A DNA stretch of 64,000 nucleotides from Bacteroidales bacterium. GTDB lineage: Bacteria; Bacteroidota; Bacteroidia; Bacteroidales; UBA932. This document shows, one piece after another, positions 4,273 through 64,000 of this stretch. The stretch is taken from assembly GCA_017962375.1 (NCBI GenBank), contig JAGCVJ010000014.1, forward strand, positions 42,790 to 106,789, in the 5' to 3' direction. The notes beneath the pieces were generated by a model. That model worked only from the letters and a program-made list of their open reading frames with translations, searched no databases and was not told the DNA's origin. How positions within the stretch are numbered: the stretch's first letter is position 1; the number at the start of each line of letters is the position of its first letter. Both the position numbers and the translations under genes were made by a program.

Positions 4273-4310
4273 GTCCAAAAAAGCAAGAGCTCGGCGCAAT
4301 ACCGAGCTCT
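4273..4310 (-). terminator. Intrinsic terminator of lipoprotein C
   Basis: AGAGCTCGG, a 7-nt loop, then CCGAGCTCT. Followed on the minus strand by TGCTTTTTTGG. Lies 32 nt after the stop codon. Confidence 0.75.
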
Positions 4311-4341
4311 ATTCCATTTAGAAATCTCAAAAAGAGGTAAG

Positions 4342-5664: not shown

Positions 5665-5670
5665 TCCTCC
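5665..5670 (-). promoter_or_regulatory. Shine-Dalgarno-like GGAGGA before lipoprotein C
   Basis: Minus strand TTTAAAATTATGGAGGAATGAAAATGAAC. The spacing fits the second ATG. Confidence 0.45.
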
Positions 5671-5676
5671 ATAATT

Positions 5677-5733
5677 TTAAAGATCATCCCAGTCTTCTTC
5701 TGGTGAAGGGTCAACTTCGTCGCCAGAGCTCAT
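5677..5733 (-). pseudogene. Truncated small ORF C-prime: only the conserved 18-codon tail remains (MSSGDEVDPSPEEDWDDL)
   Basis: The tail is near-identical to B-prime, D-prime and E-prime. The upstream in-frame sequence (..DSSLTLCHFSASVA) has lost the EEY..P.C.VYS half. It may still be translated from its own ATG. Confidence 0.35.
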
Positions 5734-5757
5734 AGCAACACTGGCGGAAAAGTGACA

Positions 5758-5765
5758 CAAAGTTA
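5758..5765 (-). promoter_or_regulatory. Exact TAnnTTTG -7 box (TAACTTTG), 24 nt upstream of the C-prime ATG
   Basis: Minus strand TTTAACTTTGTGTCACTTTTCCGCC. Confidence 0.5.
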
Positions 5766-5800
5766 AAGAAGAGTCAACTAAAATTGCAAATCACAGTAAA

Positions 5801-5831
5801 ACAAAAAACGGGCAGGATTTTGTCCTGCCCG
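5801..5831 (-). terminator. Intrinsic terminator of lipoprotein D
   Basis: CGGGCAGGA, a 5-nt loop, then TCCTGCCCG. Followed on the minus strand by TTTTTTGTTTT. Confidence 0.8.
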
Positions 5832-5856
5832 CCCTAAAAGTACTATTCGAAAAAAA

Positions 5857-7956: not shown

Positions 7957-7962
7957 TCCTCC
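7957..7962 (-). promoter_or_regulatory. Shine-Dalgarno-like GGAGGA before lipoprotein D
   Basis: Minus strand TTTAAAATTATGGAGGAATGAAAATGAAAAAG. Confidence 0.45.
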
Positions 7963-7968
7963 ATAATT

Positions 7969-8112
7969 TTAAAGATCACCCCAGTCTTCTTCTGGTGAAG
8001 GGTCAACTTCATCGCCAGAGCTTAAAGTAGCAATGGTGCTCTCGAAATTTACGGAATACACTCTGCAAACTGGAGCAGTGTACTCCTTTTCCGTGTTAAA
8101 ATTGAACTTCAT
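7969..8112 (-). CDS. Small acidic ORF D-prime (47 aa)
   Basis: Hand translation: MKFNFNTEKEYTAPVCRVYSVNFESTIATLSSGDEVDPSPEEDWGDL. Confidence 0.6.
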   Translation of the reverse strand: MKFNFNTEKEYTAPVCRVYSVNFESTIATLSSGDEVDPSPEEDWGDL

Positions 8113-8163
8113 TTTTATAAATATGTATTATTATTTTTGTTCGATTAGGTCGAAAAAAGCGGC

Positions 8164-8171
8164 GCAAGTTA
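8164..8171 (-). promoter_or_regulatory. Imperfect -7-like box (TAACTTGC) upstream of D-prime
   Basis: Minus strand GCTAACTTGCGCCGCTTTTTTCG. Context conserved with the B-prime box. Confidence 0.35.
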
Positions 8172-8264
8172 GCATAATAAATTTGACACTTCCAAATTTT
8201 TTGGCGGAAAAACTCAAAAAATACCACTCAGCGGTGCATTACAGGCCTGTTTTGTAACATCTAT

Positions 8265-8302
8265 GACAAAAACAAAAGCGGGCAGGAATATCCCGCCCGC
8301 TT
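8265..8302 (-). terminator. Intrinsic terminator of lipoprotein E
   Basis: AAGCGGGCAGG, a short loop, then CCCGCCCGCTT (one mismatch). Followed on the minus strand by TTTTGTTTTTGTC. Confidence 0.75.
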
Positions 8303-8324
8303 AAATGCTAATACGTTCCAGAAT

Positions 8325-11246
8325 CTATTCGGCATTAACTCCCCAAACTACAAAACGTTTCCCTGTTGTTGCTGTAAGAGTCAATTGCTTATCCTGAGTC
8401 ATACCAGAAAGCGATATCTCAAAATAGTAATTTGCAGGTGCTCCACTCAAAGTAAATGGAGTATTATTACTGATTCCAGCATCACTAGTCAAAGACAAAA
8501 CAGATGGTGTTGCATCAACACCAGACAAAGTAATCTTGACTGTTTCGTTATTCCAAGCAGCGATATGAACATGAAGTTTGGTTGTTCCAGAAGGAACAGT
8601 AATTATCATTGCGCCAGCCTTACTGCTTGTTCCACACTTTATTGCATTATATTCGGTATTTGAAATAACAACTTTTGCTGCAGTTGCACTAGTTCCACCG
8701 CTAGTGCTTAGTGTTACATTACTTGTATTAATATCAGAATAATCCCCACCTGCCTCTGAGTCAAACCTTGCTGCTATAGAAACATCTGACGTTCCCATAG
8801 TGAAAGTAGCAGTTTCAGTGTTTCCGCTTACGGTAGCTCCAGAAACTGTCCAGCTAGTAAAGTTGTAGCCAGAAGCTGGAGTTGCAGTAAGGGTAACTAC
8901 TGTACCTTCCAAAACTTCAGTTCCTGAAGATATGGCAGAACCATTAACCTTTACGGTGAATGAGCCTCCAGCTGATGGCTGAGTAAATGTAACAGCATGT
9001 GCAGTAGGAGTATGGGCTTGGGTAATGGTAATGCCATCGGTAGACCAAACCTTTATCTGGTCATTGTTGTTATACCATGCTATAGTTCCCACTGCAGTAA
9101 TAACATCTCCTTCGGCAAGTCCGGAAGGAACTCCTGCGGCAGCATAAACCACATATGTATTGCTTCCATTCTTGACAGAAATGTTCTTATCGTTAATTCC
9201 GGTCACCTCAAGGTCATTGACCTGAACATATGCACTCTGATATGTACTGAGATTCCCAACAAGCTGAGAGAGTGTGAATACCTGAGGAGCTACCGTTGCC
9301 TGCGAACCGGTAAAGTTGGCAGTCAGGGCTGTGATTTCAGCACAATTGTGGTACATCGTAGCTGTTACGGTTATTGGACCTGACAATGTCTGACCCTGTA
9401 GCAAACCATGATCTGTTACAAAAACCAATGTAGAACCTGTAGCGTCTTTGATTACTGCATTCTTTGTATCAGGAACAAATGAAATTACTGCATTGGTAAG
9501 AGTTCCGGAATAATCACCTGCAGTAGCTGCCAGAGCGTTGAGTTGGGCAACTGTGGTGAAATCTGAACCAGGAGTGCTTACTTCACACTCTTTCTCTGCG
9601 ATATCACTCATGTTATAACCTGGAGCTCCGGCAAATGCCTTGACTGTGCAAGTTTCAGTGATTGTAAACGGCTCAGTATATTCCTGAGTAGTTCCGATAG
9701 GATTACCGTCATCATCGATACCAGGAGTAGTTCCATCAGTGGTATAGCCGATTCTTGCACCTGATGCGGAGCAAGTGATGGTAACGGTATTCGTTGAAGA
9801 ATTGAACGATATTTCTGGAGTTGGACACTTAGGATCATCAATCAGAGATGAGCCTTCTCCACTTCCTTCGAGTACATATACAACAACTTCCTTCTGACCA
9901 GAAGCATAGCAAGAGAAGATTGGAGGATTATTGCCGCTATTGTATTTAATAATATTACGAGTATTTTCCCCGCTAGCTTTCAATACGGTATAACCATCCT
10001 CAATTGTTACGCTGAAAGAAGCATTTCCATCCTTGGTGTCCTGACTCTTAAGATAATTTGAACCAGAACTTGCAGCATAAATATACTTATCTGTCTGATC
10101 ACCGTTTACGCACTTGAATGCAACTGTGTTGGATTCAGTACCGGCCTCAAGAGTGAATATCTGAACAGCATCGCCAGGATTGGTAATAGTTTTAAGATCT
10201 TCGCTCTTATCAACATCAGTATGAGCTCTATTATTACCATTCTGAGTAGTGCTCATTGCTTTTGCATAATCCTTAGCAACAATTATTGCCTTTGCACCAG
10301 GAAGCAATTGCTTCTTGTCAGTGAGGATTTTATAAACCTTGTCTTCTCCAGGAGTGATGCCTGCCATGCTGATTGTAAATGTAGCAACTTTTCCAGCCAG
10401 GAAGTTACCCTTACCGGTAGGGAATGTGATGGTCTTTGCATATACTCCAGCATCTGTATGAACAGCAACCTTAAGAGTCTTACCCTCCAGATTTACAGGC
10501 TTAAATGAAAACCAGAAATCGGTGGTGTTATTCTTATCTATCTCAAGGTCTGAAACATCAAGATTAACGCTGTTGCCAGCAGAATTTACTTCATAAGACC
10601 CGTCTGAAGGTTTGAAACGGAATCTTCCTGCAACCTGCTCCTGTGCGGTAAGCTCAATGCTGTTGATTGTAACAGTTTCAGGCAGGTTCCTGAACTGGAA
10701 CTTACCATAAGCAGCAATGTGAGAGAAAATCAGTGTAACAGGAGTAGTCTCCTCTGGGAACTCAGAGAATGTAGCTGACTTGGCCGCCATTATATGAGCC
10801 TTTTCATCAACGGAATTCAGGGTTGGTTTCTGTGATGCTGGGAAGTCAACCTGAACGTTGCTGTTATCTGCATTTGCATTCCAGTTTATCACTGAAGCAG
10901 CAGGGCTTAAGGCATAGAAAACATAACTATCCTGTCCGTCATCTTCAATGGTAGCATTGAAAGTAGCGGTTTTACCATCTGAGCTAGGAGTTACCTCTGC
11001 CTGCTTAGCAGAACCGAAGTTAAGGGAAATGCTAACCTTCTCGTTTTCTGTCCAAACGGTAGGATAACCAGCATCTGTCTTGTCGCCGAAAGCGGTCTTG
11101 GTGGAAGGATTGGAAGCCTTTGCACTGAAAGAGATCTTCTTTACAGATTTTTCAGGAAGGTTCTCAACAGTCTCGTTTTTGCTGCAGCTTGCCAGTGTCA
11201 GACCAGCTATGGCAGCAAGGCATAAGTAATTAAAGAACTTTTTCAT
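8325..11246 (-). CDS. Modular surface lipoprotein E, the largest: pilin-like N-domain, mid module, CHB_HEX_C-like segment, OB-fold-like (DUF5689-type) module, InlB-B-repeat-like module, C-terminal module
   Basis: ORF track, 973 aa. Lipobox LASC followed by SKNETVEN. Segments: ARIGYTTDGTTPG..TVKAFA; DFTTVAQLNAL..VIKDATGS..IKVWSTDGITI; HAVTFTQPSAGGSF..GYNFTSWTVSGATVSGN. Confidence 0.85.
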   Translation of the reverse strand: MKKFFNYLCLAAIAGLTLASCSKNETVENLPEKSVKKISFSAKASNPSTKTAFGDKTDAGYPTVWTENEKVSISLNFGSAKQAEVTPSSDGKTATFNATIEDDGQDSYVFYALSPAASVINWNANADNSNVQVDFPASQKPTLNSVDEKAHIMAAKSATFSEFPEETTPVTLIFSHIAAYGKFQFRNLPETVTINSIELTAQEQVAGRFRFKPSDGSYEVNSAGNSVNLDVSDLEIDKNNTTDFWFSFKPVNLEGKTLKVAVHTDAGVYAKTITFPTGKGNFLAGKVATFTISMAGITPGEDKVYKILTDKKQLLPGAKAIIVAKDYAKAMSTTQNGNNRAHTDVDKSEDLKTITNPGDAVQIFTLEAGTESNTVAFKCVNGDQTDKYIYAASSGSNYLKSQDTKDGNASFSVTIEDGYTVLKASGENTRNIIKYNSGNNPPIFSCYASGQKEVVVYVLEGSGEGSSLIDDPKCPTPEISFNSSTNTVTITCSASGARIGYTTDGTTPGIDDDGNPIGTTQEYTEPFTITETCTVKAFAGAPGYNMSDIAEKECEVSTPGSDFTTVAQLNALAATAGDYSGTLTNAVISFVPDTKNAVIKDATGSTLVFVTDHGLLQGQTLSGPITVTATMYHNCAEITALTANFTGSQATVAPQVFTLSQLVGNLSTYQSAYVQVNDLEVTGINDKNISVKNGSNTYVVYAAAGVPSGLAEGDVITAVGTIAWYNNNDQIKVWSTDGITITQAHTPTAHAVTFTQPSAGGSFTVKVNGSAISSGTEVLEGTVVTLTATPASGYNFTSWTVSGATVSGNTETATFTMGTSDVSIAARFDSEAGGDYSDINTSNVTLSTSGGTSATAAKVVISNTEYNAIKCGTSSKAGAMIITVPSGTTKLHVHIAAWNNETVKITLSGVDATPSVLSLTSDAGISNNTPFTLSGAPANYYFEISLSGMTQDKQLTLTATTGKRFVVWGVNAE

Positions 11247-11252
11247 TTTAAT

Positions 11253-11258
11253 TCCTCC
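11253..11258 (-). promoter_or_regulatory. Shine-Dalgarno-like GGAGGA, 6 nt before the ATG of lipoprotein E
   Basis: Minus strand TTTAAAATTTACAGGAGGAATTAAAATGAAAAAG. Confidence 0.5.
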
Positions 11259-11266
11259 TGTAAATT

Positions 11267-11410
11267 TTAAAGATCACCCCAGTCTTCCTCTGGTGAAGGG
11301 TCTACCTCGTCGCCAGAACTCATAGTAGTAATGGCGCCTTCCAAATTGATAGAGTATACTTTGCACTGTGGTGCAAGATACTCTTCTGATTTGATGAACT
11401 TGAGTTGCAT
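11267..11410 (-). CDS. Small acidic ORF E-prime (47 aa)
   Basis: Hand translation: MQLKFIKSEEYLAPQCKVYSINLEGAITTMSSGDEVDPSPEEDWGDL. Starts only 35 nt after the stop of lipoprotein F, with no hairpin between them. Confidence 0.6.
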   Translation of the reverse strand: MQLKFIKSEEYLAPQCKVYSINLEGAITTMSSGDEVDPSPEEDWGDL

Positions 11411-11445
11411 TGTGTCTGTTATTTAATTTTTAGCTAAAAATATAA

Positions 11446-13611
11446 TTATTCAAATGTAACCTTGATGCCCTTAATACGTCTGTGTCCTGTAGTTCCGGTT
11501 ACTGTAAATGTAACAGCGCTAGAAGATCCAGTCCAAACACCAGTAGAATTATTATAAGTTACAACATCAGTAGAAATAGCATTTGATCCGTCACCAGAAC
11601 CGAAGGTAAGCTCAATCATGCTTATCTTCTTGCTAGAGTCGTTAGCGGTAACAGTGAAGTAGCCGCCACCGTAAACTCTTACAGCAGTTCCTGTAGTGTA
11701 GTATTTAGGAGTGTTGCTGTTGGTACCCTTGTCAAATGTGACAGTTGCATTGGTGCCTGTTACGGTCTTTACTTCCTGTGCATTTGAATAACCTGTAGAC
11801 AAGTCAAAGGTCTCGGTGAGAACGCTTGAAGACTCAAGGTTAGCTACAATGTTGATGTCAGCAGTACCTACCTTGAAGGTTACAACATGGGAAGTGGTGC
11901 TGCTGAGATTTACTGCATTGGTAATGCTCCAGGTGGTGAAGTTATAACCGCCAGTCAATACTATCTCGGCCTTTACTTCAGTGCCTTCAATATACTTGGC
12001 GCCTGAAGTGATTTCAGTTCCGCCAACAGTTACTTTGATAGAACCGCCGGCTTCCGGCTGGGTAAAGTTGATGGCGTGCTCTGTTGGAGTGTGCTCGGTA
12101 ATGGTTAAGTCATCAGCCTTCCAAACCTTGAGCTCTTTGAATACAGTATCGTCCTTCTTAAACTGTGTAACGGTTCCGATTACTGTAATCTTATCACCTA
12201 CAACACAGGTTGGAGTGCCATAGTTGCAGTATACGATGAAACCGGTATACTCTCCATCTGTAACGGTAACGTTCTTTCCATCAACAGCAGTAACTTCAAC
12301 ATTTTCAAGCTTAGCGTATGTGTTCTGATAAGTATTATACTGCCAGCCCATATTGAAGATAGTCAATACCTGAGGATCAACTACAGCGCCTTCACCAGTG
12401 AATGTGGCATCCATGGTGGTGATCTCAGAATAGAGGCTCTGGTAATTCTGGAGGGTAACTGTGATGTTGCCGGTATAGGTCTGGCCCTGCTTCAAGCCGT
12501 GGCCGGACTTGTAGTACATAACTGAACCTGTTCCGTCTGTAATGATGGCAACAGTAGTATTAGGAACAAATGAAACAACTGCATTGGTGAGCTTACCTGT
12601 CTTGGATGTTGGGGTTTCGCCAACTTCATCAGCAAGTTCGTTGAGCTCTGCAACAGTTGTGAAGTCGAAAGTTTCGAGAGTCTTGTCGTAAGCGAAAGCT
12701 ATCTTCTTCATCTTGCCAGCCTTGAACTCATAGTCCTTGTCTGCAGAGATAACCTTTTCCTGAGCTCCGTTGGATGCGGTAACGGTGATGGTGAAGTCAT
12801 CGCCTTCGTTAACAACGAAAGGCTTAACTGCAAGATAGAAAGTGGCCTTTTCGCCTGCTGCTATTGCCTCGCCGCTGTTTACAACCAGGTTAGCTACGTT
12901 GCTTACATAGGTTTCGCCGCTTGGGGTGAAGCCAGGATTGTAAGGATCTGTGAAATCGATGTAGTAGGTACCTACGATATCAACTCCGTCGGCTGTGATG
13001 GAAATGCCGGAAACTGTAATAGCTTCTCCTTTCTTTGTAGCGTTCTCAACCTCAACCTCAATAAGAGAGGAAAGATGCCTCATCTGGATAACAGGCCTTT
13101 CGTCGCCAGAAATTTTAGATGCTACACCTGCGATAGGATAGTTGTTGCCGGAAATATGAGCAGTGCTGTTGTTGCCCTTCTGAGTCTGGTTGCCCTTTGC
13201 GGTGGATCCTACAGTCACATAACCTGCAGATGTGTTGGCAGGAGTGGTGATCTGCTTTGTGTAAGGATAGAAAGCGTACCAGTTGTAGGTCTTGGTTTCA
13301 TCAAAGCTGGCATCAAGGGTTCCTGTGAAGGTGGCGGTTGCGCCTGCAGCTGATGTCTTGAACTGGCCGTCGCTGACATAAGCAGGAGTATCCTCGCCAG
13401 CAACATTGTGGAACAGGTTGATAGCGTCATTGGCAGCCCACAGCGTCTTCATGCCGTCATTGGTGGTCTTGGTGTTGACGCCGTTAAGAGTTACTGAGAA
13501 ATCGGTCTTCTCGATTTCCTTCATTCCGGTATCGTTCTTAGAACATCCGGTGAATGCAATGGCAGCTACTGCCAAAGCACTCAAAACGTAAGATTTGAAT
13601 TTCTTTGTCAT
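11446..13611 (-). CDS. Modular surface lipoprotein F: divergent pilin-like N-domain, OB-fold-like module, InlB-B-repeat-like module, C-terminal module
   Basis: ORF track, 721 aa. Lipobox FTGC followed by SKNDTG. Segments: NTKTTNDGMKTLWAANDAINLF, YAFYPY, MRHLSSLIEVEV; FTTVAELNEL..AIITDGTGS..LKVWKADDLTI; HAINFTQPEAGGS..GYNFTTWSI; C-terminus PKYYTTGTAVRVYGGG. Confidence 0.85.
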   Translation of the reverse strand: MTKKFKSYVLSALAVAAIAFTGCSKNDTGMKEIEKTDFSVTLNGVNTKTTNDGMKTLWAANDAINLFHNVAGEDTPAYVSDGQFKTSAAGATATFTGTLDASFDETKTYNWYAFYPYTKQITTPANTSAGYVTVGSTAKGNQTQKGNNSTAHISGNNYPIAGVASKISGDERPVIQMRHLSSLIEVEVENATKKGEAITVSGISITADGVDIVGTYYIDFTDPYNPGFTPSGETYVSNVANLVVNSGEAIAAGEKATFYLAVKPFVVNEGDDFTITVTASNGAQEKVISADKDYEFKAGKMKKIAFAYDKTLETFDFTTVAELNELADEVGETPTSKTGKLTNAVVSFVPNTTVAIITDGTGSVMYYKSGHGLKQGQTYTGNITVTLQNYQSLYSEITTMDATFTGEGAVVDPQVLTIFNMGWQYNTYQNTYAKLENVEVTAVDGKNVTVTDGEYTGFIVYCNYGTPTCVVGDKITVIGTVTQFKKDDTVFKELKVWKADDLTITEHTPTEHAINFTQPEAGGSIKVTVGGTEITSGAKYIEGTEVKAEIVLTGGYNFTTWSITNAVNLSSTTSHVVTFKVGTADINIVANLESSSVLTETFDLSTGYSNAQEVKTVTGTNATVTFDKGTNSNTPKYYTTGTAVRVYGGGYFTVTANDSSKKISMIELTFGSGDGSNAISTDVVTYNNSTGVWTGSSSAVTFTVTGTTGHRRIKGIKVTFE

Positions 13612-53864: not shown

Positions 53865-54617
53865 TTAAGAGGATGATAACAAGAATAGAGCTATTTCATA
53901 CATAAGTTCATATTGCTCCATAAATGGAGCACAAAAAGACAATCCCGATTGTTCTAAAAAAGAATTGACTGTCTCGAAATCAACATAATAGATGTTATTC
54001 TTAAAAGAAATACACCAAGGAGTTCCTTTAAAAAAACTATATGGATATATATCTATTATGTTGTTTCCATCTTTATCTATCAGCAACATTTCAAAATCAG
54101 GAATGTAGACAATTAACTCCGGATTATGCGAAAGTTTTTCAAAATCCTTAAATGATAATTGAAACGAATTAATTTTTAATTTCCTGAGCTTTTTCTTTGT
54201 GTATTTTTTACTTGGATTAATAAATCTATAGTCAGTATTTGCAAAATCATCTATGCCCTTTAGGTATTTTTTATACAGCTTCTCATCAACATTGAATTTC
54301 AATAAATCACAAAGCTGGTTCTGATTGTTATTTATTTGATGACATAAACTATCAACCATACTGGATTTAATTATTTGAGGTATCTGACGATGAGAAAAGG
54401 ACGAGTTTTCTTGCGGTATATACTCATAACAATCACCCTTCTTCTTAAAACAAAGGGAGCAGAAAGGTGGTGCATACCCTACGGAATACTCTCTATACTT
54501 AATCACAATATCGGCAATAGTGTCTTTATCAATTTCTTGAGAATACAATACTCCTATATTGAAGAATACAAGTAATATACAAAGAGTCTTATTTTTAATT
54601 CTGTTGTTACTGGACAT
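53865..54617 (-). CDS. AT-rich secreted ORFan
   Basis: Track ORF 53865..54623 starts with TTG; the first ATG is at 54617. Signal-like LCILLVFFNIGVLYSQ. No family recognised. Very low G+C. Confidence 0.55.
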   Translation of the reverse strand: MSSNNRIKNKTLCILLVFFNIGVLYSQEIDKDTIADIVIKYREYSVGYAPPFCSLCFKKKGDCYEYIPQENSSFSHRQIPQIIKSSMVDSLCHQINNNQNQLCDLLKFNVDEKLYKKYLKGIDDFANTDYRFINPSKKYTKKKLRKLKINSFQLSFKDFEKLSHNPELIVYIPDFEMLLIDKDGNNIIDIYPYSFFKGTPWCISFKNNIYYVDFETVNSFLEQSGLSFCAPFMEQYELMYEIALFLLSSS

Positions 54618-54786
54618 TACCAATATTAGCCTCTAATTATACCAAGTACAAGATAATAAAAAAGAAAGTAGTTTTGTTGACCATAGTGCACAAAATGCAA
54701 TTATTTTTGAATTTGTTCATTATAAAAAACATCCCAACATCTATGTCATCAGGTAAAAGAAGATAAATGTTTTCGAAAAGAAATGT

Positions 54787-54794
54787 TAATTTTG
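54787..54794 (+). promoter_or_regulatory. TAnnTTTG -7 box (TAATTTTG) for alaS
   Basis: Ends 45 nt upstream of the ATG at 54839. A GCCGAAA..TTTCGGC hairpin (54804-54824) lies in the leader. Confidence 0.45.
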
Positions 54795-54838
54795 TACGAT
54801 TATGCCGAAATGTGTGTTTTCGGCAGATTTGACAGTAT

Positions 54839-57466
54839 ATGGAATCAAGAAAGATAAGAGAAACATTTCTGGAGTATTTCAGAAGCAAGGAGCACGAGAT
54901 AGTGCCGAGCGCGCCGATGGTGGTGAAGAATGACCCGACGCTGATGTTTACAAATGCAGGCATGAACCAGTTCAAGGACATATTCCTGGGCAATGCCGCG
55001 CCATTTGCCAAGAGAGCGGCGGATAGCCAGAAGTGCCTGAGAGTTAGTGGAAAACACAACGACTTGGAAGAAGTGGGGCACGATACCTACCATCACACAA
55101 TGTTTGAGATGCTGGGCAACTGGAGCTTCGGGGACTACTTCAAGAAAGAAGCCATTGAGTGGAGCTGGGAGCTGCTGACCAAGGTGTTTGGCATAGATCC
55201 GGGAAGGCTGTATGCTACGGTGTTTGAAGGATATGAGCCGGATGGCCTGGGAATGGATGAAGAGGCCAGAGACAACTGGCTGAAATTCCTGCCTGCCGAC
55301 AGAGTGCTGATGGGAAACAGGAAAGACAACTTCTGGGAGATGGGAGAGCAGGGTCCGTGCGGCCCGTGCAGCGAGGTGCATATAGATCTTCGCGATGATG
55401 ATGAAAGGGCAAAGGTGCCAGGGAGAGAACTGGTGAACAAGTCTGACCCTCTGGTAATTGAGATATGGAACCTGGTGTTCATGCAGTTCAACAGGAAGGC
55501 AGACGGAAGCCTGGAGAAACTCCCTCACAACAATGTAGATACGGGAATGGGATTCGAGAGGCTCTGCATGGCCCTGCAGGGAAAGAAGAGCAACTACGAC
55601 ACAGACGTGTTCACCCCGCTGCTGAACAAGGTTGGAGAGATTGCAGGTGTTAACTATGCAACTGCTGACGAGAAAGTCAGAGTGGCAATGAGAGTGGTGT
55701 CTGACCACGTGAGGGCAATAACGTTCTCCATTGCAGACGGGCAGCTGCCGTCTAACGTGAAGGCCGGATATGTGATCCGCAGGATTTTGCGAAGGGCGGT
55801 AAGATACGCCTACACATTCCTAGGAGTTAAAGAGCCGCTGCTGTTCAAGCTGGTGCCTACGCTGGTGGAACAGATGGGAGACTTCTATCCTGAGATCAGA
55901 AAGCAGGAGACGCTGATTTCCAAGGTGATCAAGGAAGAAGAAGACGCCTTCCTCAGGACTCTGGAAAGAGGAATCAGGCTGATGGACGAGGTAGTGGCCA
56001 AGTGCAAAAGCACAGGATCTTCCCTTGTAAACGGAACAGACGCGTTTGTATTGTATGACACATTCGGATTCCCGATAGACCTTACTGAACTTATTGCAAA
56101 GGAGAACTCTCTGGAAGTGGATCTTCCGGGCTTTGAGGCTGAGCTCAAGAAGCAGAAGGAAAGAAGCCGCAACGCGGACGCCAAGAAAGAAGGAGACTGG
56201 GTATATGTCCTGGATCCGGAAGAAGAGTCTGTGTTCACGGGATATGACAACATTTGTGAAGAAAGAGTTCAGATACTCCGCTACAGAGAAGTCAAGACCA
56301 AGGGCAAAGACCTGTTCCACTTAGTATTGTCCAAGACTCCGTTCTATGCCGAAAGCGGCGGACAGGTGGGAGACAAGGGATGGCTCTGCTCTGTTTCCGG
56401 AGAGAAAATCGCGATAATAAACACAGTAAAGGAAAACGGGCTGAGCATACACGTGGCAGAGAAAATGCCTTCTGACGTGAATGAGCTGTTCACGGCCCAG
56501 GTGGACGAGGAGCTCAGGCTCTCCACCACAGCCAACCACAGCGCCACCCACCTTCTGGACTATGCGCTGAGGAAAGTGCTCGGAACACACATTGAGCAGA
56601 AAGGCTCCTATGTAAGCCCTCAGAACCTGAGGTTCGACTTCTCACATTTCGAGAAAGTTTCTCCGGACAAGCTCCGCGAAGTGGAAAGGCTGGTGAATGC
56701 CCTTATCCGCAAGGATATCAAGAAGGAAGAAATGAGAGACATGCCGATAGAAGAAGCCAAGAAGCTTGGAGCAATTGCCCTCTTCGGCGAGAAATACGGA
56801 GACAAGGTAAGGGTGATCAAGTTTGCAGACAGCGTTGAGTTCTGCGGCGGAACCCACATTCCTTCCACCGGAATGATAGGCTATTTCAAGATCCTCAGCG
56901 AAAGCGCCATTGCAGCGGGAGTCAGAAGAATAGAGGCTACAACAGGAAAGAACGCGGAAGACATTATCTACGCTTCAGAAGACCTGATGCTGAACCTGAA
57001 GGAGCTGTTCAAGAACGCCCCTAACCTGATGGACAGCGCCAAGAGGATGATTCTTGAGAACGACCAGCTCCGCAAGCAGGCCGAGGACATGATGAAGGAG
57101 AAGGCCGTCACCCTCAAGGACAAAGCCAAGACTCTGGCGGAAAACATAAACGGAATAGACTTTATCCGCGTGAAAGGCGTGTTCCCGGCAGAACTTATGA
57201 AGACCGTGGCCTTTATGCTAAGGGCCGAATGCACGAGTACGGTATTTGCAGGCGGTATAGCAGATCCTGCAAAGCCGGGGCTGGTGCTGATGTACACCGA
57301 TGACCTGGTAGCCAAGGGAATGAACGCCGGCAAAGACATACGTCCTGCAGCCAAGTTCATAAACGGAGGCGGAGGCGGACAGCCGTTCTTCGCCAGCGCC
57401 GGAGGTAAGAATGCGGAAGGAATAGACGCTGCCCTGGATTGCATTAGAGAAAACCTGACCAAGTAA
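54839..57466 (+). CDS. alaS: Alanine-tRNA ligase
   Basis: ORF track, 875 aa. [15 protein letters not shown], and the HSATH editing motif (NHSATHLL). Confidence 0.97.
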
Positions 57467-57472
57467 AGGGGG

Positions 57473-59026
57473 ATGAATTCAATTAAAGAGGCCATAAAGG
57501 GTTTCTTGAAGAAACTGGGAGTAAAGACTTTGGATATGTATATGCTGAAGTCTTTCCTGGGGCCTTTTATTGCCGTGTTCGCCATTGTCACCTTCATCCT
57601 GATGATGCAGTTCTTGTGGCTGTACATCGACGAGCTTGTAGGAAAGGGCTTGGGCTTCAAGGTTATAGCCCAGTTCCTTATGTGGGGAAGCTGCACGCTG
57701 ATTCCTTACGCCCTGCCGCTTGCCACCCTGCTGGCTTCCATCATGACAATGGGAAACCTGGGCGAGAACAGCGAGCTGCTCTCAATGAAAGCAGCCGGCA
57801 TCTCCCTCCAGAGAATAATCAGGCCGCTCAGCTATGTGGCCATAGTGATAGTTGTGGGAGCCTTCTTCGCTTCCAACAACCTAATTCCTGTAGCATACAA
57901 CAAGATCTACACCCTCAGGGAAGACATAACCAACACCAAGGAGGAGATCAAGATTCCGGTTGGCATATTCTACGACGGAATCGAGGGCTTCTCCATAAGG
58001 GTGGGTGCAAGAGACAAGAACATGCTCATGCACCAGATAATGATCTACAACCACACCAAGGAAAGCGGAAACTCAGACCTGACCATCGCCGATTCCGGAA
58101 GATTTTCCATCACTCCAGACAAGAAGGGATTCCTGATCACACTTTACAACGGCATCAACTACAAGGAAACCAACGAGCGCACCTATACCGACACCACTCT
58201 CCAGCTTCAGAGGATCAAGTTCAAGTTCCAGCAGATAGCCATCCCGCTTGAAAACTACGCTTTCAGCCAGAGCAAGGAAGGCAGGTACAGCGGAGAGGTA
58301 ATGGCAAAGAACATTACCCAGCTCAGCCGCGACAAGGATTCCCTTTCACACGCTAACGACTCTTCTTTGAACTACCACACCCAGAGGGCTATACACGGAG
58401 ACTGGCTGGGGCATCAGGACCAACTGGACACGGCCCGCAACAAGGGCTACCGAAAGAGCTTCAAGGCAGAGGAACTGTATAAATGGAAGACAGATGCAGA
58501 CAAGGTCAACGCCCTCCAGAGCGTGTACGGAGCCCTGAACAACGAGAAAGTTTCTCACTCGTTCTACAACGCCCAGATTTACCAGACCGCATATCCTCTC
58601 AGAAGAACCATCATAGAGAGATACCGCAAGTTCACCTTGAGCCTGGCCTGCCTGATTTTCTTCTTCATCGGCGCCCCTATTGGAGCCATCGTGAGGAAGG
58701 GCGGACTGGGAACGCCGGCCATTATCTCCATACTGTTCTTCGTGCTGTACTGGGTGGTGGACATCAGCGGAAAGAAACTGGCCAACGACGGAGCCATAAC
58801 CCCGTTCCTGGGAGCTTTCATTTCAACGATTGTACTTGCACCACTTGCGGCATTCCTAACCTGGAAATGCACCCAGGACTCCGTTACATTCAATCTTGAA
58901 ACTTTCGGAAAGGACATAAAGAACTTCTTCCAGAGACTTTTCAGCAAGACCAAGAGACTTCAGTATAAGCTCAACATGCAGAAGATCCTCAAAGAGGAAG
59001 AAGAGAAGATGCAACAGAATGGATAA
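57473..59026 (+). CDS. LptF/LptG (YjgP/YjgQ) family permease
   Basis: ORF track, 517 aa. LDMYMLKSFLGPFIAVF motif. Six TM helices with a periplasmic insert. Confidence 0.85.
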   Translation: MNSIKEAIKGFLKKLGVKTLDMYMLKSFLGPFIAVFAIVTFILMMQFLWLYIDELVGKGLGFKVIAQFLMWGSCTLIPYALPLATLLASIMTMGNLGENSELLSMKAAGISLQRIIRPLSYVAIVIVVGAFFASNNLIPVAYNKIYTLREDITNTKEEIKIPVGIFYDGIEGFSIRVGARDKNMLMHQIMIYNHTKESGNSDLTIADSGRFSITPDKKGFLITLYNGINYKETNERTYTDTTLQLQRIKFKFQQIAIPLENYAFSQSKEGRYSGEVMAKNITQLSRDKDSLSHANDSSLNYHTQRAIHGDWLGHQDQLDTARNKGYRKSFKAEELYKWKTDADKVNALQSVYGALNNEKVSHSFYNAQIYQTAYPLRRTIIERYRKFTLSLACLIFFFIGAPIGAIVRKGGLGTPAIISILFFVLYWVVDISGKKLANDGAITPFLGAFISTIVLAPLAAFLTWKCTQDSVTFNLETFGKDIKNFFQRLFSKTKRLQYKLNMQKILKEEEEKMQQNG

Positions 59027-59981
59027 GAAGACAAGAATCATCTATATGGGCACTCCGGAATTTGCGGTGGGCCCGCTGAAGGCGTTGCTGGATGCCGGAT
59101 ATGACATTCCGGCGGTGGTAACCGTTCCCGACAAGCCTAAAGGCAGAGGGCTGCAGATGGCCCAGAGCGATGTTAAAAAGTTTGCTCTCGAAAGAGGAAA
59201 CATAGACATCCTCCAGCCGGAAAAACTCCGCGACGAAAACTTCCTCTCCCGGCTTAAAAGCTACAATGCCGATCTTTTTATCGTGGTGGCTTTCAGGATG
59301 CTGCCGGAAGTTGTCTGGAAGATGCCCAAGATGGGAACTTTCAACCTTCACGCCTCTCTTCTGCCAAAGTTCAGGGGCGCCGCCCCTATCAACTGGGCCA
59401 TAATCCAGAGAGAAAAGGAAACCGGAGTCGCCACGTTCTTCATCGACGATAAAATAGATACTGGCTGCATCCTTCTCCAGGAAAAATGCCCAATTGAGGA
59501 AAGGGAAACCGTGGAGACTCTTCACGACAAACTGATGGAAATGGGCTCAAGCCTTGTAGTCAAGACCGTACAGGAGCTTGAAAAAGGCACGATTACGCCT
59601 CAGCCTCAGGACGCTTCTTCTCTCACCGAGACAAACTCTGCCGCTCCAAAGCTCAACAAGACCAACTGCAGAATAGACTGGAGCAGAACCGCCGAAGAAT
59701 GCGACGCCCTGGTAAGGGGCCTCTCTCCTTTTCCCGCAGCCCTGGCTACAATGGAAACCGGCAGCGGAGAAACTGTGGAGATGAAAATCTTTGCAACGGA
59801 ACTCTCAGACAAAAAAGCGGGGAAAGTTATCTTTACAGACAAGTCCATATTTGTTCCTTGCTCAGACAAGATGCTGGAGATAACCTCTTTGCAGCCGGCC
59901 GGCAAAAAGAGAATGGGCGCAAAAGACTTCATAAACGGCCACAAAAACCTCATCGACGATGAAAACATCCGCTTCTTCTGA
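59019..59981 (+). CDS. fmt: Methionyl-tRNA formyltransferase
   Basis: ORF track, 320 aa. IIYMGTPEFAV, NLHASLLPKFRGAAPI motifs. Confidence 0.95.
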   Translation: MDKKTRIIYMGTPEFAVGPLKALLDAGYDIPAVVTVPDKPKGRGLQMAQSDVKKFALERGNIDILQPEKLRDENFLSRLKSYNADLFIVVAFRMLPEVVWKMPKMGTFNLHASLLPKFRGAAPINWAIIQREKETGVATFFIDDKIDTGCILLQEKCPIEERETVETLHDKLMEMGSSLVVKTVQELEKGTITPQPQDASSLTETNSAAPKLNKTNCRIDWSRTAEECDALVRGLSPFPAALATMETGSGETVEMKIFATELSDKKAGKVIFTDKSIFVPCSDKMLEITSLQPAGKKRMGAKDFINGHKNLIDDENIRFF

Positions 59982-60645
59982 AAAGACAATTGTCATTCTC
60001 TGCGACGGAAATTTCCCTTCTAAAGGCAAAGCCAGAAAACTCCTGGAAAAGGCCTCCAAGAAGGACCATGTTCTAATTGCCTGTGACGGGGCCGTCTTGA
60101 GCCTGGTCAAAAACGGGATGAGCGCAGACCACATAGTGGGCGACATGGACACTCTTCCCAAGAAGTGGCAGCAGAAATTCAAGGCCATAATCCACAAGGA
60201 AGAAGAACAGGATTTCAATGACCTTTGCAAGGCTTTCCGCTTTGCCATGGGGCTGATAGACAGCTCTACCAGCAACATCGTGATACTGGGAGCCACCGGC
60301 AAGAGGGAAGACCATTCTCTTGGCAACATCTCCTACCTTCCGCTCTTTGCCCAGACTCTCAGAGAGAAATTCCCGAAGCAGAAAATCAATATCTCAATGG
60401 CAACAGACTATGGCGTGTTTGTCCCGGTCCTTAACACCACAAGGCTGAAAGGAGAAATCGGTGACAAGATCTCCATATTCGCCTTTGACAACACGCTTCA
60501 GATAAAGTCCACGGGCCTTGAATACAAGACCGATGACGTTGTGTTTGACCTGTGGTGGAAAGCCACTCTGAACACATTCAAAAAGCGGGATGTGCTGCTT
60601 AAGTTCAGCCATCCCGCCAAAGCCTTGCTTTATTTTCCTTTCTAA
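59959..60645 (+). CDS. Thiamine diphosphokinase
   Basis: ORF track, 228 aa. IVGDMDTL and ILGATGKREDHSLGNI motifs. Confidence 0.85.
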   Translation: MKTSASSEKTIVILCDGNFPSKGKARKLLEKASKKDHVLIACDGAVLSLVKNGMSADHIVGDMDTLPKKWQQKFKAIIHKEEEQDFNDLCKAFRFAMGLIDSSTSNIVILGATGKREDHSLGNISYLPLFAQTLREKFPKQKINISMATDYGVFVPVLNTTRLKGEIGDKISIFAFDNTLQIKSTGLEYKTDDVVFDLWWKATLNTFKKRDVLLKFSHPAKALLYFPF

Positions 60646-62309
60646 GCCAGGAACATTCCTACCATTGCGGCTGAAACCAGTGCAACGAGGGCAGATCCGA
60701 GCAATGCCCTGATTCCGTATTCGCCGAGTATGGACTGCTTGTTAGGAGCCATGCCTCCGACACCTCCGATTATGATACCGATAGAGGCGAAGTTTGCGAA
60801 TCCGCAGAGCACGTAAGTTGCCATCACGATGGACTTAGGAGAAGAGAATACACTGTTCTGGAGCATCTCGGTAAGAGAGCCGTAGCCGATGAACTCGGTG
60901 AGGATGAGTTTCTCTCCGAGGAGTCTTCCCACATAACCTATATCCGCGCTCGGAACTCCGATGAGCCAGATGATCGGATAGAACAAGTATGAGAGTATGC
61001 ACTCCAATGAGAGGTCTGTGTACCTTCCCTCTGTAGCTGCGGCAATCCAGCGGTCCATAGCCGGGAAGCTTATGATGTTCAGAATGTAGTTTACACCTGC
61101 AATCAGAGCGTAGAATACCAGCAGCATCGCTGCCACGTTTGCGGCGAGCTTCAGACCCTGGGTTGTTCCTATTGATATGGCATCCAGCACGTTGCTTCCG
61201 AGTTTTTCCTTGGAAACCTGTACGGAGTTATCTATCTTCTCGGTCTCTGGCTTGAGGATCTTGGCCATTGCGATTGCTCCAGGAGCCGCCATCACGGAGG
61301 CGCTCAGAAGGTGCTTTGCAAATTCTACTGTCATCACCGGATCTCCGCATCCCAGCATTCCGATATATGCCGCCAGCACTCCACCACTCATCGTGGCCAT
61401 ACCGGACACCATAATCAGCATAAGTTCGCTTCGGCTCATTCTAGGAATATATTCCTTGACCATCAGCGGAGCCTCGGTCTGACCCAGGAAGACGTTTCCG
61501 GCGCAAGACAAAGACTCAGCACCTGAAATGTTCATAAGCTTGGTCATTATCCATCCCATAAACCATACGACCTTCTGCAGAATGCCGAGATAGAACAGCA
61601 AGCTAGTCAGGGCTGAGAAGAATACGATGGTAGGAAGAATCTGGAATACGAAAATATATCCTATGCTCGTGGTGTCCATCAAAGGACCGAACAAAAAGTC
61701 TGCACCCGCCTTGGTCCAGCCCAAGACGGCCACGAAGCATTTGCCGAATACCTCGAAGAATTTCTGAACCGGAGGGAACATCAATACGCAGAACGCAATG
61801 ATGAACTGCAGCAGCAGAGCCATGCCCACAGTCCTCCAGTTAACCTTCTTGCGGTCAGTTGAGAACAGCCAGGCTATCAGCACGATAACTGCAATACCAA
61901 GGATTCCCTTTCCTATTGCTCCGGCACTGAAATGCAGTTCCTTTTCCTGCAGAATCCTGCTGAACATCTCCTTACGTTTAGCCAGTTGCTCATCCTTTGA
62001 GATTTCGTCAGGATTGACGCTCCCTGCTGAAATACTCTGAGCTGACGCATTTTCAACTTCAGCAGCATCTGCTCCGGCAACTTCAGCTACGGTCTCTGAG
62101 GTTTGAGGTTCAGCAGCCTGCGGCTGTTCAACCTGGGCGGTAGCTGTTGGTTCATTCTGGTTAGTTACCGCTGCATTCACAATGCCGCATACAAATCCCA
62201 CGGCAATGATAACCAGCGCAACCTTCAGAAACTTAGGCCCCATGAATCCAATCCTGGGCCCGCTTTTCTTTGTAGTTTTCTTCATATAGATTTGGTTTTG
62301 TCTTTCCAA
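60642..62309 (-). CDS. NupC/CNT-family nucleoside transporter with an N-terminal extension of roughly 125 aa
   Basis: ORF track, 555 aa, with a TTG start at 62309; the first ATG is at 62285 (MKKTTKK). CNT core begins around ..ILGIAVIVLIAWLFSTDRKKVNWR. Confidence 0.85.
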   Translation of the reverse strand: MERQNQIYMKKTTKKSGPRIGFMGPKFLKVALVIIAVGFVCGIVNAAVTNQNEPTATAQVEQPQAAEPQTSETVAEVAGADAAEVENASAQSISAGSVNPDEISKDEQLAKRKEMFSRILQEKELHFSAGAIGKGILGIAVIVLIAWLFSTDRKKVNWRTVGMALLLQFIIAFCVLMFPPVQKFFEVFGKCFVAVLGWTKAGADFLFGPLMDTTSIGYIFVFQILPTIVFFSALTSLLFYLGILQKVVWFMGWIMTKLMNISGAESLSCAGNVFLGQTEAPLMVKEYIPRMSRSELMLIMVSGMATMSGGVLAAYIGMLGCGDPVMTVEFAKHLLSASVMAAPGAIAMAKILKPETEKIDNSVQVSKEKLGSNVLDAISIGTTQGLKLAANVAAMLLVFYALIAGVNYILNIISFPAMDRWIAAATEGRYTDLSLECILSYLFYPIIWLIGVPSADIGYVGRLLGEKLILTEFIGYGSLTEMLQNSVFSSPKSIVMATYVLCGFANFASIGIIIGGVGGMAPNKQSILGEYGIRALLGSALVALVSAAMVGMFLA

Positions 62310-62336
62310 ACTGCATTGATATTACAAATATACAAT

Positions 62337-63014
62337 TTATTGGTGCAATTCGGGAATTGGATCCAAGATTATACCCTTGCTGCGGAATTCTCGAAGATTG
62401 TGCATCTTGGTAAGTATCATGTCTGAAGGTATTGTAAAAGTCATATATCTCTGAATAAACTCTTCTTCCGTCATACCTTCTTCCAAGTCTTCAATAACGC
62501 ACTCAGGTAACTTCAGGCGCCAATGAACCTGCTCACAGCCTGTGGATGAGGAAATAATTGTCAAGTATGCCCGTCCATCTGTATCTGTATTTAAAGGATC
62601 ACTTAGCTTTAAAACAACCTCTCCAGTATTTATATCATACTCGGAGGTTATAATATTAACATTATAATGCTCCTGCTCAAACAAAACAGAAACTTCGGCC
62701 CTATCTGTCATACCAAGAAATCTGTTCAGATCTGACAACCTGTTTACTATTATGCTATCGTTCTTGTAGTACAATATACTTGCAATATAAGAATTCGCTC
62801 CTAATCCAGAAGTGTCAAATCTGTCCATTTGGCGGCGGAGAGCTTTTATTTTTAAAATGAATATTTCATTGTCATCTAGGTTGACATACTTCCAATATCC
62901 CTGATAAAAAGATGGTTGGTCTTCTTCAGGTAAAGAAATAAGTTCCTGAGCAAAAAGGTTTTTAGGAAAAAGTACAAAACCAATTAGCAAAATCATTAAA
63001 AAACACTGTTTCAT
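62337..63014 (-). CDS. AT-rich small secreted protein; candidate immunity-type partner of the upstream gene
   Basis: ORF track, 225 aa. Signal peptide MKQCFLMILLIGFVLFPKNLFAQ. Starts 8 nt after the upstream stop. No family recognised. Confidence 0.6.
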   Translation of the reverse strand: MKQCFLMILLIGFVLFPKNLFAQELISLPEEDQPSFYQGYWKYVNLDDNEIFILKIKALRRQMDRFDTSGLGANSYIASILYYKNDSIIVNRLSDLNRFLGMTDRAEVSVLFEQEHYNVNIITSEYDINTGEVVLKLSDPLNTDTDGRAYLTIISSSTGCEQVHWRLKLPECVIEDLEEGMTEEEFIQRYMTFTIPSDMILTKMHNLREFRSKGIILDPIPELHQ

Positions 63015-63022
63015 ATCTGTTT

Positions 63023-64000
63023 TTATTGAATAATCATACGATTACAATCAAAGGGCTGGACATAATCATAATCTATATTCTTCCACCCTATATCTAAACT
63101 CAAGGTATCGATAGCATTATCATACAAACTTGTTTCTCCAAAAAACACTTCAAATCCTATTCCCTCTAAAACTTCTCTTATTCGTTGCACTCTATTGAAA
63201 TCCGAGGTGTACTTAGAGCTATCAAACATATCATCAAAAAAGTGTCGTAGGTTTCTTGTAAGTGTTCCATATGATTTTTCTTGTATAAAGGTATTAAAAG
63301 TTGCTTGATCTCGGAGCCTAACTATCAGAACATTACTTGCCGTAACTATGCCGTATGTGAAATCCAAAGGTGAATTGGCGCGAGAGCTGAAATCATTACA
63401 CATTGCAGCAAAATCTGCTGAAGTCATACCTATACTTCCTTCAGGATGAAGGTGAAAATGATACACTCTGTTCACACTAACAGGTACAGGAACACTGTGA
63501 TGCCCGCCTTTAATTACGATATCAGAGGAAGAACCGGCTATTCTCAATACAGCGTACTCCCTGAGGGAGTCGCCAGGAAAAGATCTCTGTATAAATTGTT
63601 TTGCAAGCAATTTTCTTACAGCTTCAGGAATATTCTCATTTTCTGACAATAATGCTAAGCGAGTACAAGCGTCGTTAAAGGTATAACTTGCAACAAAACT
63701 CATAGTGCTCTGGACATTATGAATTTGCAGATAATTACCAGAAAAGGAAACATTGCTGCCAGCATTGCCCATCATATTCAAAGCTTTGAACCAGCAGCTA
63801 TCAGAATATTTCTTTGGTATTTCGATATAAGGAGAAGGAGAGCCTTCTACTATATCATCTTGATAGATTACTGCCTGGTGACAACCCCCGGAAAGAACCG
63901 TTACCGTATAATAGGTTTTGTTATTTTGAATATTACCACCTCCATATCCCGGATCTGGAGGAATTCCGCCTCCATCATAATTACCTGTCTGATAATCTAA
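63023..64000 (-). CDS. C-terminal part of a larger protein, open to the window edge: Gly-rich linker followed by a JAB/MPN-like domain
   Basis: The track lists 63023..63781 from a TTG start. The same frame has no stop up to position 64000 (hand translation LDYQTGNYDGGGIPPDPGYGGGNIQNNKTYY..). REYAVLRI..HFHLHPEGSIGMTSADF matches E..HxHx7[ST]xxD. Confidence 0.55.
   Translation of the reverse strand, partial: LDYQTGNYDGGGIPPDPGYGGGNIQNNKTYYTVTVLSGGCHQAVIYQDDIVEGSPSPYIEIPKKYSDSCWFKALNMMGNAGSNVSFSGNYLQIHNVQSTMSFVASYTFNDACTRLALLSENENIPEAVRKLLAKQFIQRSFPGDSLREYAVLRIAGSSSDIVIKGGHHSVPVPVSVNRVYHFHLHPEGSIGMTSADFAAMCNDFSSRANSPLDFTYGIVTASNVLIVRLRDQATFNTFIQEKSYGTLTRNLRHFFDDMFDSSKYTSDFNRVQRIREVLEGIGFEVFFGETSLYDNAIDTLSLDIGWKNIDYDYVQPFDCNRMIIQ

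Follow-up and report, generated by a model that had tools for sequence, protein, structure and literature searches.

What is encoded by the AT-rich block at the right edge of a 64,000-nucleotide (nt) stretch of an uncultured Bacteroidales genome (assembly GCA_017962375.1, contig JAGCVJ010000014.1, positions 42,790 to 106,789; hereafter the window), and is it, as an initial annotation of this DNA proposed, a toxin gene with its immunity gene? The block (62337-64000) comprises two genes that form an accessory module in the genome of this uncultured bacterium. It contains the 3' part of a gene for a 611-amino-acid (aa) lipoprotein with a C-terminal JAB/MPN+ (JAMM) metallopeptidase-like domain (here referred to as the JAB gene) and, directly behind it, a gene for a 225-aa protein of the family DUF6705. 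Its G+C content is 0.371, in agreement with the ~37% estimated initially, versus 0.505 in the adjoining 7.5 kb (54839-62309). Comparison with sequences of related genomes suggests that the two products form a previously undescribed toxin/antidote pair in uncultured gut/rumen Bacteroidales. With a probability of roughly 0.55, the lipoprotein would be a surface JAMM (iso)peptidase toxin and the DUF6705 protein its periplasmic immunity protein, a reading in which we infer the activity, the target, the inhibition and the delivery route.

The JAB gene had to be completed from outside the window. At 63023-64000 on the minus strand, the frame is unbroken over 325 codons plus a TAA stop (63023-63025), and its translation starts LDYQTGNYDGGGIPPDPGYGGGN. 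The initial annotation had rightly noted that this frame is open at position 64000 and continues beyond it. The Logan metagenome contig L001, which carries the exact 225-aa neighbour, is 100% identical to the window across all 1701 common bases and contains the complete gene of 611 aa (L001 1706-3541), and contig L019, which has the window's own fmt, shows the same gene order past the window edge. A TTG-started 252-aa open reading frame (ORF) at 63023-63781 is a listing artefact, as L001 extends the frame and homologues align straight across that point. Because of the L001 identity and of homologues aligning through 63781, the frame in the window is taken as the end of the 611-aa gene; the ordinary short protein with its own start at ~63775-63781, considered initially as a possibility that would speak against a module, gives way to a gene that runs further upstream. 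The next gene was confirmed to start 8 nt past the stop, with its ATG at 63014.

The assignment of the C-terminal domain to the JAB/MPN+ (JAMM) domains is supported by its predicted metal site and its modelled fold. The E..HxHx7(S/T)xxD signature that had been spotted at first, with Thr in place of Ser, stands up in both its Glu and its His/Asp part (positions in Table 1) and is kept across the family. In full-length numbering the motif comprises H469, H471, T479 and D482. The pattern H-x-H-x7-(S/T)-x-x-D is kept in 13/13 full-length relatives (20-47% identity), mostly with Ser (e.g., HYHPSGQLNPSFGD and HSHPNGNPIISAGD), and its S/T position is Ser in 7/9 aligned sequences; an E-[YW] motif lies ~35 residues upstream of the HxH motif across relatives. 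The sole degenerate motif is that of the N-terminally truncated relative P0008, in which the second His is replaced by Gln. By chance, H.H.{7}[ST]..D arises in 341 of 200,000 shuffles of the 325-aa fragment (0.17%), and there are two occurrences in the ~128,000 residues of the six-frame translation of the window.

The AlphaFold2 (AF2) model of the 325-aa fragment, made from a 9-sequence alignment (pLDDT 80.3, pTM 0.72), consists of a disordered stretch (fragment residues 1-26), an Ig-like sandwich (~28-108) and an alpha/beta domain (109-325). In the model, HxH closes strand 178-184 and T/SxxD opens the next helix (194-207), which is the canonical JAMM arrangement; a helical insert is predicted at residues 232-279. 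Foldseek searches against the PDB returned mostly Prp8-Jab1, CSN5, AMSH, AMSH-LP and Sst2 as top matches (probability 0.9-1.0; identity 7-14%). Searches against BFVD, which holds predicted viral structures, gave 13 matches at E <= 1e-3 (from 2e-5), including proteins of iridovirus, mimivirus, frog virus 3 and African swine fever virus (ASFV), a 'deubiquitination hydrolase' and a phage 'metalloprotease'. Of the two kinds of search that had been proposed at the outset as a check of the JAB fold, the structural one thus pointed mostly to JAB/MPN proteins, whereas sequence and profile models were silent. No informative match of the JAB protein was found in NCBIfam, PADLOC or PHROGs. Sequence and profile searches of the PDB gave weak spurious matches only (PheRS beta chain, oxalate-CoA ligase), which were discarded.

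The complete protein is arranged, in this order, as a lipoprotein signal, an N-terminal domain, a Gly-rich linker, the Ig-like sandwich and the JAB/MPN+ domain. Its signal peptidase II signal, located outside the window, ends LFS-C34 and is followed by V-K-E-D (LFSC-VKEDK), and C-x-[KR]-[ED]-D is found after the lipobox Cys in all full-length relatives. In Bacteroidetes, K-(D/E)2 after the lipobox Cys (+3 to +5) is a lipoprotein export signal sufficient for surface exposure (PMC5080379), and by sequence LFSC-VKEDK belongs to this class of signals. Since V-K-E-D matches K-(D/E)2, the JAB lipoprotein is expected to be flipped across to the cell surface. Packing into outer-membrane vesicles goes hand in hand with surface exposure in Bacteroides (PMC6222051), and the JAB lipoprotein, judged by its signal, could be packed in this way. 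The N-terminal domain (~250 aa) is conserved, beta-rich, contains four Cys and usually ends in a CxxC..CxxC knuckle; neither in the 611-aa protein nor in its relatives does it have a Pfam match. A GGG..DP..GGG linker is found in most relatives by alignment, and the Ig-like sandwich, modelled with six strands at pLDDT 81-94, has a sub-threshold match to Pfam Ig_7 (E = 0.037).

This architecture bears on the layout from which a polymorphic toxin/immunity module had been proposed, namely, a linker, a C-terminal enzymatic domain and an adjacent small gene. A classical polymorphic toxin would be exported by a type VI (T6SS) or type IX (T9SS) secretion system or with Rhs repeats and would carry swappable C-terminal cassettes or, in a variant of this explanation, a RadC-like nuclease acting in the cytoplasm of the target cell. 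JAB toxins have indeed been catalogued in such systems and proposed to be nucleases (PMC3482391). However, the extension beyond the window edge, which had been recommended as a test for Rhs/YD repeats, a T6SS or T9SS marker or a lipoprotein, uncovered the lipoprotein alone: the N-terminus consists of a lipoprotein signal and a domain that Pfam does not match, with no Rhs, PAAR, VgrG or T9SS C-terminal domain. More generally, no secretion or trafficking marker (type V, T5SS; T6SS; type VII, T7SS; T9SS; Rhs; PAAR) was detected by Pfam in the full-length proteins. All relatives found share the same JAB domain, and no swapping of C-terminal cassettes was seen among them (E <= 1e-3, 1.84 billion representatives) or among the loci fetched, in which the sole architecture variant is a 441-aa fusion protein without any C-terminal domain (see below). 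Pfam Toxin-JAB1 and DUF4329 are silent, and an exported partner fits a nuclease target in the cytoplasm poorly. The absence of any Rhs or secretion-system marker, together with a constant C-terminal domain, leads us to reject the classical polymorphic toxin as highly improbable. What survives of the initial proposal is its immunity part: the small partner is conserved, coupled and exported, and orphan copies of it fit an immunity gene.

The 225-aa partner had been described as having no recognisable family, which does not hold: it matches Pfam DUF6705 (PF20448) above threshold (40.7 bits vs. a cut-off of 24.4, E = 2.9e-10, model positions 1-187 of 188), and 16/17 of its relatives are also annotated PF20448. 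The cleavable signal peptide recognised at the same time is borne out by a predicted LFA|Q cleavage and by Gln23, which is invariant in one alignment and nearly so in another. A Gln at +1 is what the 'Q-rule' of Bacteroidetes calls for in substrates of signal peptidase I (PMC5837995), and the protein is predicted from its sequence to be exported via Sec and cleaved at A|Q by signal peptidase I. The AF2 model from 17 sequences (pLDDT 81, pTM 0.80) is mostly beta-strand, tentatively an eight-stranded calycin-like beta-barrel. Its best PDB fold matches are designed barrels, Tp0751, avidins, nitrophorins, CpeS lyase and lipocalin-type proteins, all at E >= 0.1. The gene is probably translationally coupled to the JAB gene. 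A search of a literature library found no paper that mentions DUF6705 and no description of a JAMM lipoprotein toxin in Bacteroidales.

By observation, the JAB lipoprotein family is very rare. When 1.84 billion representative proteins were searched exhaustively with HMMER, 7 relatives were found at E <= 1e-3, all but one of them 578-626 aa long. A word-indexed search with the full-length query gave 3 relatives, adding P0002 and confirming P0001 and P0003; the same search with the 325-aa fragment gave no relatives, although relatives exist. A profile scan (alignment A2) of 185,579 species-representative genomes yielded one locus, in a metagenome-assembled genome (MAG) of a yak-rumen Bacteroidales (L006), a profile scan of metagenome contigs yielded no locus, and tblastn searches against plasmids and against phages gave no match.

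In each of the nine independent JAB-bearing loci fetched (L001, L002, L004, L005, L006, L008, L010, L013 and L019), the distance from the JAB stop to the DUF6705 start is -14 to +15 nt. A JAB gene without a directly downstream DUF6705 gene was never found, and DUF6705 without a JAB gene is common; such one-way dependence is the usual pattern of toxin and immunity genes. For example, at the site between iPGM and dnaE, L008 has JAB and DUF6705, and L007, which represents 21 further contigs like it, has DUF6705 only. Alignment of L007 5955-6000 with L008 4100-5990 reveals a clean deletion of JAB, in which the ATG is joined to the last 20 nt of the gene and DUF6705 is intact upstream of dnaE. In L014-L017, DUF6705 is kept and follows what is left of the JAB gene, an N-terminal remnant of 113 aa; in L009 it stands directly after tgt; L010 contains an extra, diverged DUF6705 upstream, and L005 a broken second copy downstream. 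Among orphan copies, nonsynonymous differences are proportionally rarer than synonymous ones (pN 0.20 vs. pS 0.76); because synonymous sites are saturated, only these two proportions are quoted. On these sequences, a JAB-domain effector with an exported partner is plausible, and the orphan DUF6705 copies strengthen the idea of a toxin with its immunity protein.

The orphan copies also bear on a different explanation, namely, that the pair is a protease with its self-inhibitor and not a weapon. In that case the JAMM enzyme would act on host or dietary substrates (ubiquitin-like or isopeptide-linked modifications, peptides), and DUF6705 would do no more than shield the periplasm of the producer while the enzyme is exported, in the manner of the beta-barrel inhibitors of serralysins (AprA/AprI; see below). 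Such a system would have the same architecture and export signals; Bacteroidetes surface lipoproteins are usually nutrient-acquisition proteins (PMC5080379), the JAB domain is invariant across the family, and its dN/dS of ~0.3 gives no indication of diversifying selection. However, an inhibitor left without its protease should vanish, yet in one lineage that has lost JAB by deletion, most contigs have an intact DUF6705, and this gene is also kept behind truncated JAB genes and in extra copies; moreover, the module is rare, AT-rich and horizontally exchanged. We therefore regard a self-inhibited protease as unlikely.

A second alternative arises from the 441-aa gene (436 aa in its shorter form), in which an exported DUF6705 domain is joined to a copy of the JAB lipoprotein's N-terminal domain, CxxC..CxxC included, with neither linker nor JAB domain. 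In the 441-aa protein, the DUF6705 part has 30% identity to the 225-aa protein and the N-terminal domain 37% identity to its counterpart in the 611-aa protein, and the fusion protein ends where the linker would start. The fusion is either a decayed array member or a hint of an interaction between DUF6705 and the N-terminal domain. If the latter applied, DUF6705 could be a functional partner (a lipocalin-like ligand-binding protein, a chaperone or a substrate) in a surface capture system, docking at the N-terminal domain, since a natural fusion can signal physical interaction. The calycin-like fold, although resting on weak matches, would agree with this, as calycins typically bind ligands, and so would the persistence of DUF6705 on its own. 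Against it, the fusion gives the impression of having arisen by deletion in a tandem array that is decaying: right behind it, L002 has a 194-nt 3' remnant of another DUF6705 copy, and L010 has an intact DUF6705 at the same place. The asymmetry of the pair, in which JAB is never found without DUF6705 directly downstream and the reverse is common, is likewise of the toxin/immunity type, and a capture system appears quite unlikely.

The sequences of the pair indicate rapid change and movement. JAB and DUF6705 identities co-vary between loci (94/92, 47/38, 33/29, 73/71, 52/64 and 50/61%), with 70-90% for the flanking NupC, so that the pair diverges faster than its flanks by these comparisons. Between L001 and L002, the synonymous divergence (dS) is 0.09 for JAB, 0.16 for DUF6705 and 0.79 for nupC, and between L001 and L010 it is 0.07, 0 and 0.32, respectively. 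Because the dS of the module is several-fold below that of nupC, the JAB/DUF6705 module has moved between lineages after their divergence, and the low dS together with the 13-point G+C deficit indicates horizontal exchange. All contigs that share the window's fmt carry the same three genes, with no empty site among them.

The start of the JAB gene may record how the module came to lie at its site. In several loci, the leader and the first 11-21 codons of the housekeeping gene downstream of DUF6705 recur, in frame, as the beginning of the JAB ORF. Three independent junctions were recognised, two different ones in nupC and one in dnaE, with repeats of 62-300 nt and a period of 2573-2607 nt (Table 1); the JAB genes of L005, L006 and L013 have a start of their own and not a copied one. 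These copies could each have come about by tandem duplication with an in-frame junction or by insertion with a long target duplication. Upstream of nupC, the 17-nt sequence AAATTGTATATTTGTAA overlaps the DUF6705 stop and contains TAnnTTTG, which we take to be the Bacteroides -7 promoter element. An exact second copy precedes the 441-aa gene beyond the window (L001 313-329 and 4226-4242), and similar copies are present in L002, L004 and L006. As for nupC itself (60642-62285, minus strand), its product has a ~140-aa N-terminal extension before the Nucleos_tra2 core, with a basic start, a hydrophobic segment and a low-complexity Ala/Glu/Gln-rich stretch, and it is the start of this extension that is the piece copied onto the JAB gene.

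Taken as a mechanism, the JAMM domain would act as a zinc (iso)peptidase exposed at the cell surface or carried by vesicles, attacking an extracytoplasmic target of competing bacteria, with a peptidoglycan or envelope (iso)peptide bond as the favoured candidate; the target is placed outside the cytoplasm because the DUF6705 partner is exported. DUF6705 would be the cognate periplasmic inhibitor that shields the producer while the enzyme crosses the periplasm, and on its own it would protect non-producers that retain the gene. Such a toxin/immunity pair is plausible because the two genes are conserved together, coupled, fast-diverging and exchanged, and are accompanied by orphan and extra DUF6705 copies as in orphan immunity genes. 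A more far-reaching version holds that the pair represents a new class of interbacterial JAMM weapons in Bacteroidales that is delivered as a lipoprotein of the surface or of vesicles, works without T6SS, T9SS or Rhs and attacks the envelope, that DUF6705 is the first of a new immunity family, and that the module spreads by in-frame insertion into the 5' ends of nupC and dnaE, copying the promoter and the first 11-21 codons so that toxin and host gene both stay expressed. We put this forward as a possibility that is more doubtful than probable.

Several points weigh against the toxin/immunity reading. With regard to the fold, the Foldseek matches in the PDB are weak (E 3.8e-3 to 0.1, with ~110-170 of 325 residues aligned), and no curated JAB sequence model (Pfam JAB, Prok-JAB, RadC, Toxin-JAB1, DUF4329; E <= 10) matches the fragment, the full protein or the eight relatives covered. 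Because all these models miss it, the domain is treated as a new sequence family of the JAB fold. The label of a calycin-like inhibitor is an analogy only, given the weak fold matches of DUF6705. With regard to function, the C-terminal domain is invariant across the family, unlike that of polymorphic toxins, and the close comparisons that could be made do not point to an arms race (dN/dS ~0.3 for the JAB gene). The DUF6705 gene lies 23-51 nt before dnaE or nupC and is probably transcribed together with them; its position may thus be part of the reason why orphan copies are retained. To our knowledge, there is no route by which a Bacteroidales surface lipoprotein enters the periplasm of a competitor. 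Lastly, every sequence used derives from MAGs or metagenomes.

Table 1. Positions of the features of the JAB/DUF6705 module and of the copied 5' ends; coordinates refer to the window unless a contig is named.
Feature	Position	Strand	Basis or remark
611-aa lipoprotein gene, 3' part (codons 287-611 + TAA)	63023..64000	-	5' 286 codons outside the window
Gly-rich linker DGGGIPPDPGYGGGN, full-length residues 295-309	63932..63976	-	translation; pLDDT <50 at fragment residues 1-26
Small Ig-like beta-sandwich, fragment residues 28-108, invariant Cys C40 and C69	63677..63919	-	AF2 model, alignment
JAB/MPN+ metallopeptidase-like domain, fragment 109-325 = full-length 395-611	63026..63676	-	AF2 model, Foldseek
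Candidate catalytic Glu, fragment E148 = full-length E434	63557..63559	-	family-wide E-[YW] motif, start of strand 148-154
JAMM zinc-site motif HLHPEGSIGMTSAD, H183-L-H185-PEGSIGM-T193-SA-D196	63413..63454	-	translation, alignment, model
225-aa DUF6705 protein gene, starts 8 nt past JAB stop	62337..63014	-	Pfam PF20448, AF2 model
Signal peptide of DUF6705 protein, residues 1-22, predicted cleavage LFA|Q	62949..63014	-	sequence, alignments
17-nt AAATTGTATATTTGTAA, contains TAnnTTTG, overlaps DUF6705 stop, upstream of nupC	62322..62338	-	
nupC leader and first ~20 codons	62227..62288	-	source of the diverged L001 copy at the start of the 611-aa gene
DUF6705::N-domain fusion	L001 332-1657, L002 8424-9734, L019 15889-17214, L020 8131-9456		just past the window edge in L001
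Copied 5' end, nupC, junction codon ~20	L001 1703-1764 vs 4276-4337		62 nt, 81% identical
Copied 5' end, nupC, junction codon ~20	L002 9756-10055 and 12329-12628		300 nt, 99%
Copied 5' end, nupC, junction codon ~20	L010 8541-8800 and 11114-11373		260 nt, 86%
Copied 5' end, nupC, junction codon 11	L004 1120-1206 and 3728-3813		~87 nt, nearly 100%
Copied 5' end, dnaE, junction codon 21	L008 4106-4172 and 6687-6753		67 nt, 91%

Elsewhere in the window, five tandem paralogous lipoprotein genes (611, 440, 699, 973 and 721 aa; 40-46% G+C) with a common N-terminal domain are located at 2194-13611 on the minus strand. The 973-aa paralogue contains Fn3-associated, CHB_HEX_C and InlB B-repeat-like domains, and two other paralogues have no Pfam match. 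The 611- and 440-aa ORFs at 2194-5664 were considered as kin of the 611- and 441-aa genes of the JAB locus, but their lengths merely coincide and they are unrelated lipoproteins. The sharpest G+C dip of the window lies at 53865-54838 (0.32 for 54001-55000), where a 252-aa minus-strand ORF upstream of alaS has no Pfam match.

The locus has implications beyond the window. Annotation pipelines are blind to this JAB/JAMM family because no curated sequence model detects it, and the DUF6705 family would gain a proposed role, that of an inhibitor or immunity protein that is exported. The prediction of JAB-domain toxins dates from 2012, and we know of no biochemical characterisation of one; the small, tractable JAB/DUF6705 pair could settle what extracytoplasmic JAB toxins cleave. 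In addition, the in-frame copying of housekeeping-gene 5' ends is an unusual insertion pattern that merits a systematic survey.

Among the closest known systems, the precedent is that of the Tox-JAB-1 toxins of Bacteroidetes, which are RHS-repeat proteins with an NxxxE motif and are paired with Imm65, an exported alpha+beta lipoprotein with YxC and the only immunity protein of the 2012 catalogue to bear a lipoprotein signal (PMC3482391). Shared with Tox-JAB-1/Imm65 are a C-terminal JAB-fold domain on a Sec-exported Bacteroidetes protein, the HxH, S, D motif, and an adjacent partner with a signal peptide, implying an extracytoplasmic site of action. Unlike Tox-JAB-1, the window protein has no RHS repeats, no Asn four residues before the Glu (which stands in an E-[YW] context) and no Toxin-JAB1 match, and unlike Imm65, DUF6705 is mostly beta and cleaved by signal peptidase I. 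The nuclease activity proposed for JAB toxins (PMC3482391) fits an exported partner poorly. Tox-JAB-2 (Pfam DUF4329) was reported in iridoviruses and mimiviruses (PMC3482391); the window protein resembles it in its E, HxH, S, D motif and in its best viral structural matches (iridovirus, mimivirus, frog virus 3, ASFV), which may belong to that clade, and differs from it in having no DUF4329 match, Tox-JAB-2 being combined with cytoplasmic NTF2-fold immunity proteins and T6SS, T7SS or Rhs delivery.

With the JAMM/MPN+ isopeptidases (AMSH, Sst2, CSN5, Rpn11) the domain has in common the core fold, the E..HxHx7SxxD site, and the placement of HxH on a strand and of SxxD on the next helix. These enzymes work on ubiquitin-like tails in the cytoplasm or nucleus, whereas the present bacterial protein is exported and lipid-anchored, and it has conserved Cys and an additional helical insert. 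The Jab1 domain of Prp8 is an inactive JAMM relative. As regards delivery, SitA/SitI of Myxococcus (PMC5562445) offers a similar plan, namely, a lipoprotein toxin with an N-terminal escort, a C-terminal toxic domain and an adjacent immunity gene, and, like the JAB/DUF6705 module, it is mobile and has many orphan copies. The SitA toxins are polymorphic nucleases, their immunity proteins are cytoplasmic and their delivery by outer-membrane exchange depends on TraAB; SitA and the JAB lipoprotein have no sequence similarity. We know of no outer-membrane exchange system like TraAB in Bacteroidales. Lastly, the serralysin AprA is accompanied by the periplasmic beta-barrel inhibitor AprI/Inh of the calycin superfamily, which provides self-protection of the producer during export. 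AprA is a metzincin, whereas the protease fold here is JAB, and serralysin inhibitors serve self-protection, not competition; what the module would share with AprA/AprI is a secreted zinc metalloprotease next to a small, signal-peptide-bearing protein with an eight-stranded beta-barrel, a match that is weak for DUF6705.

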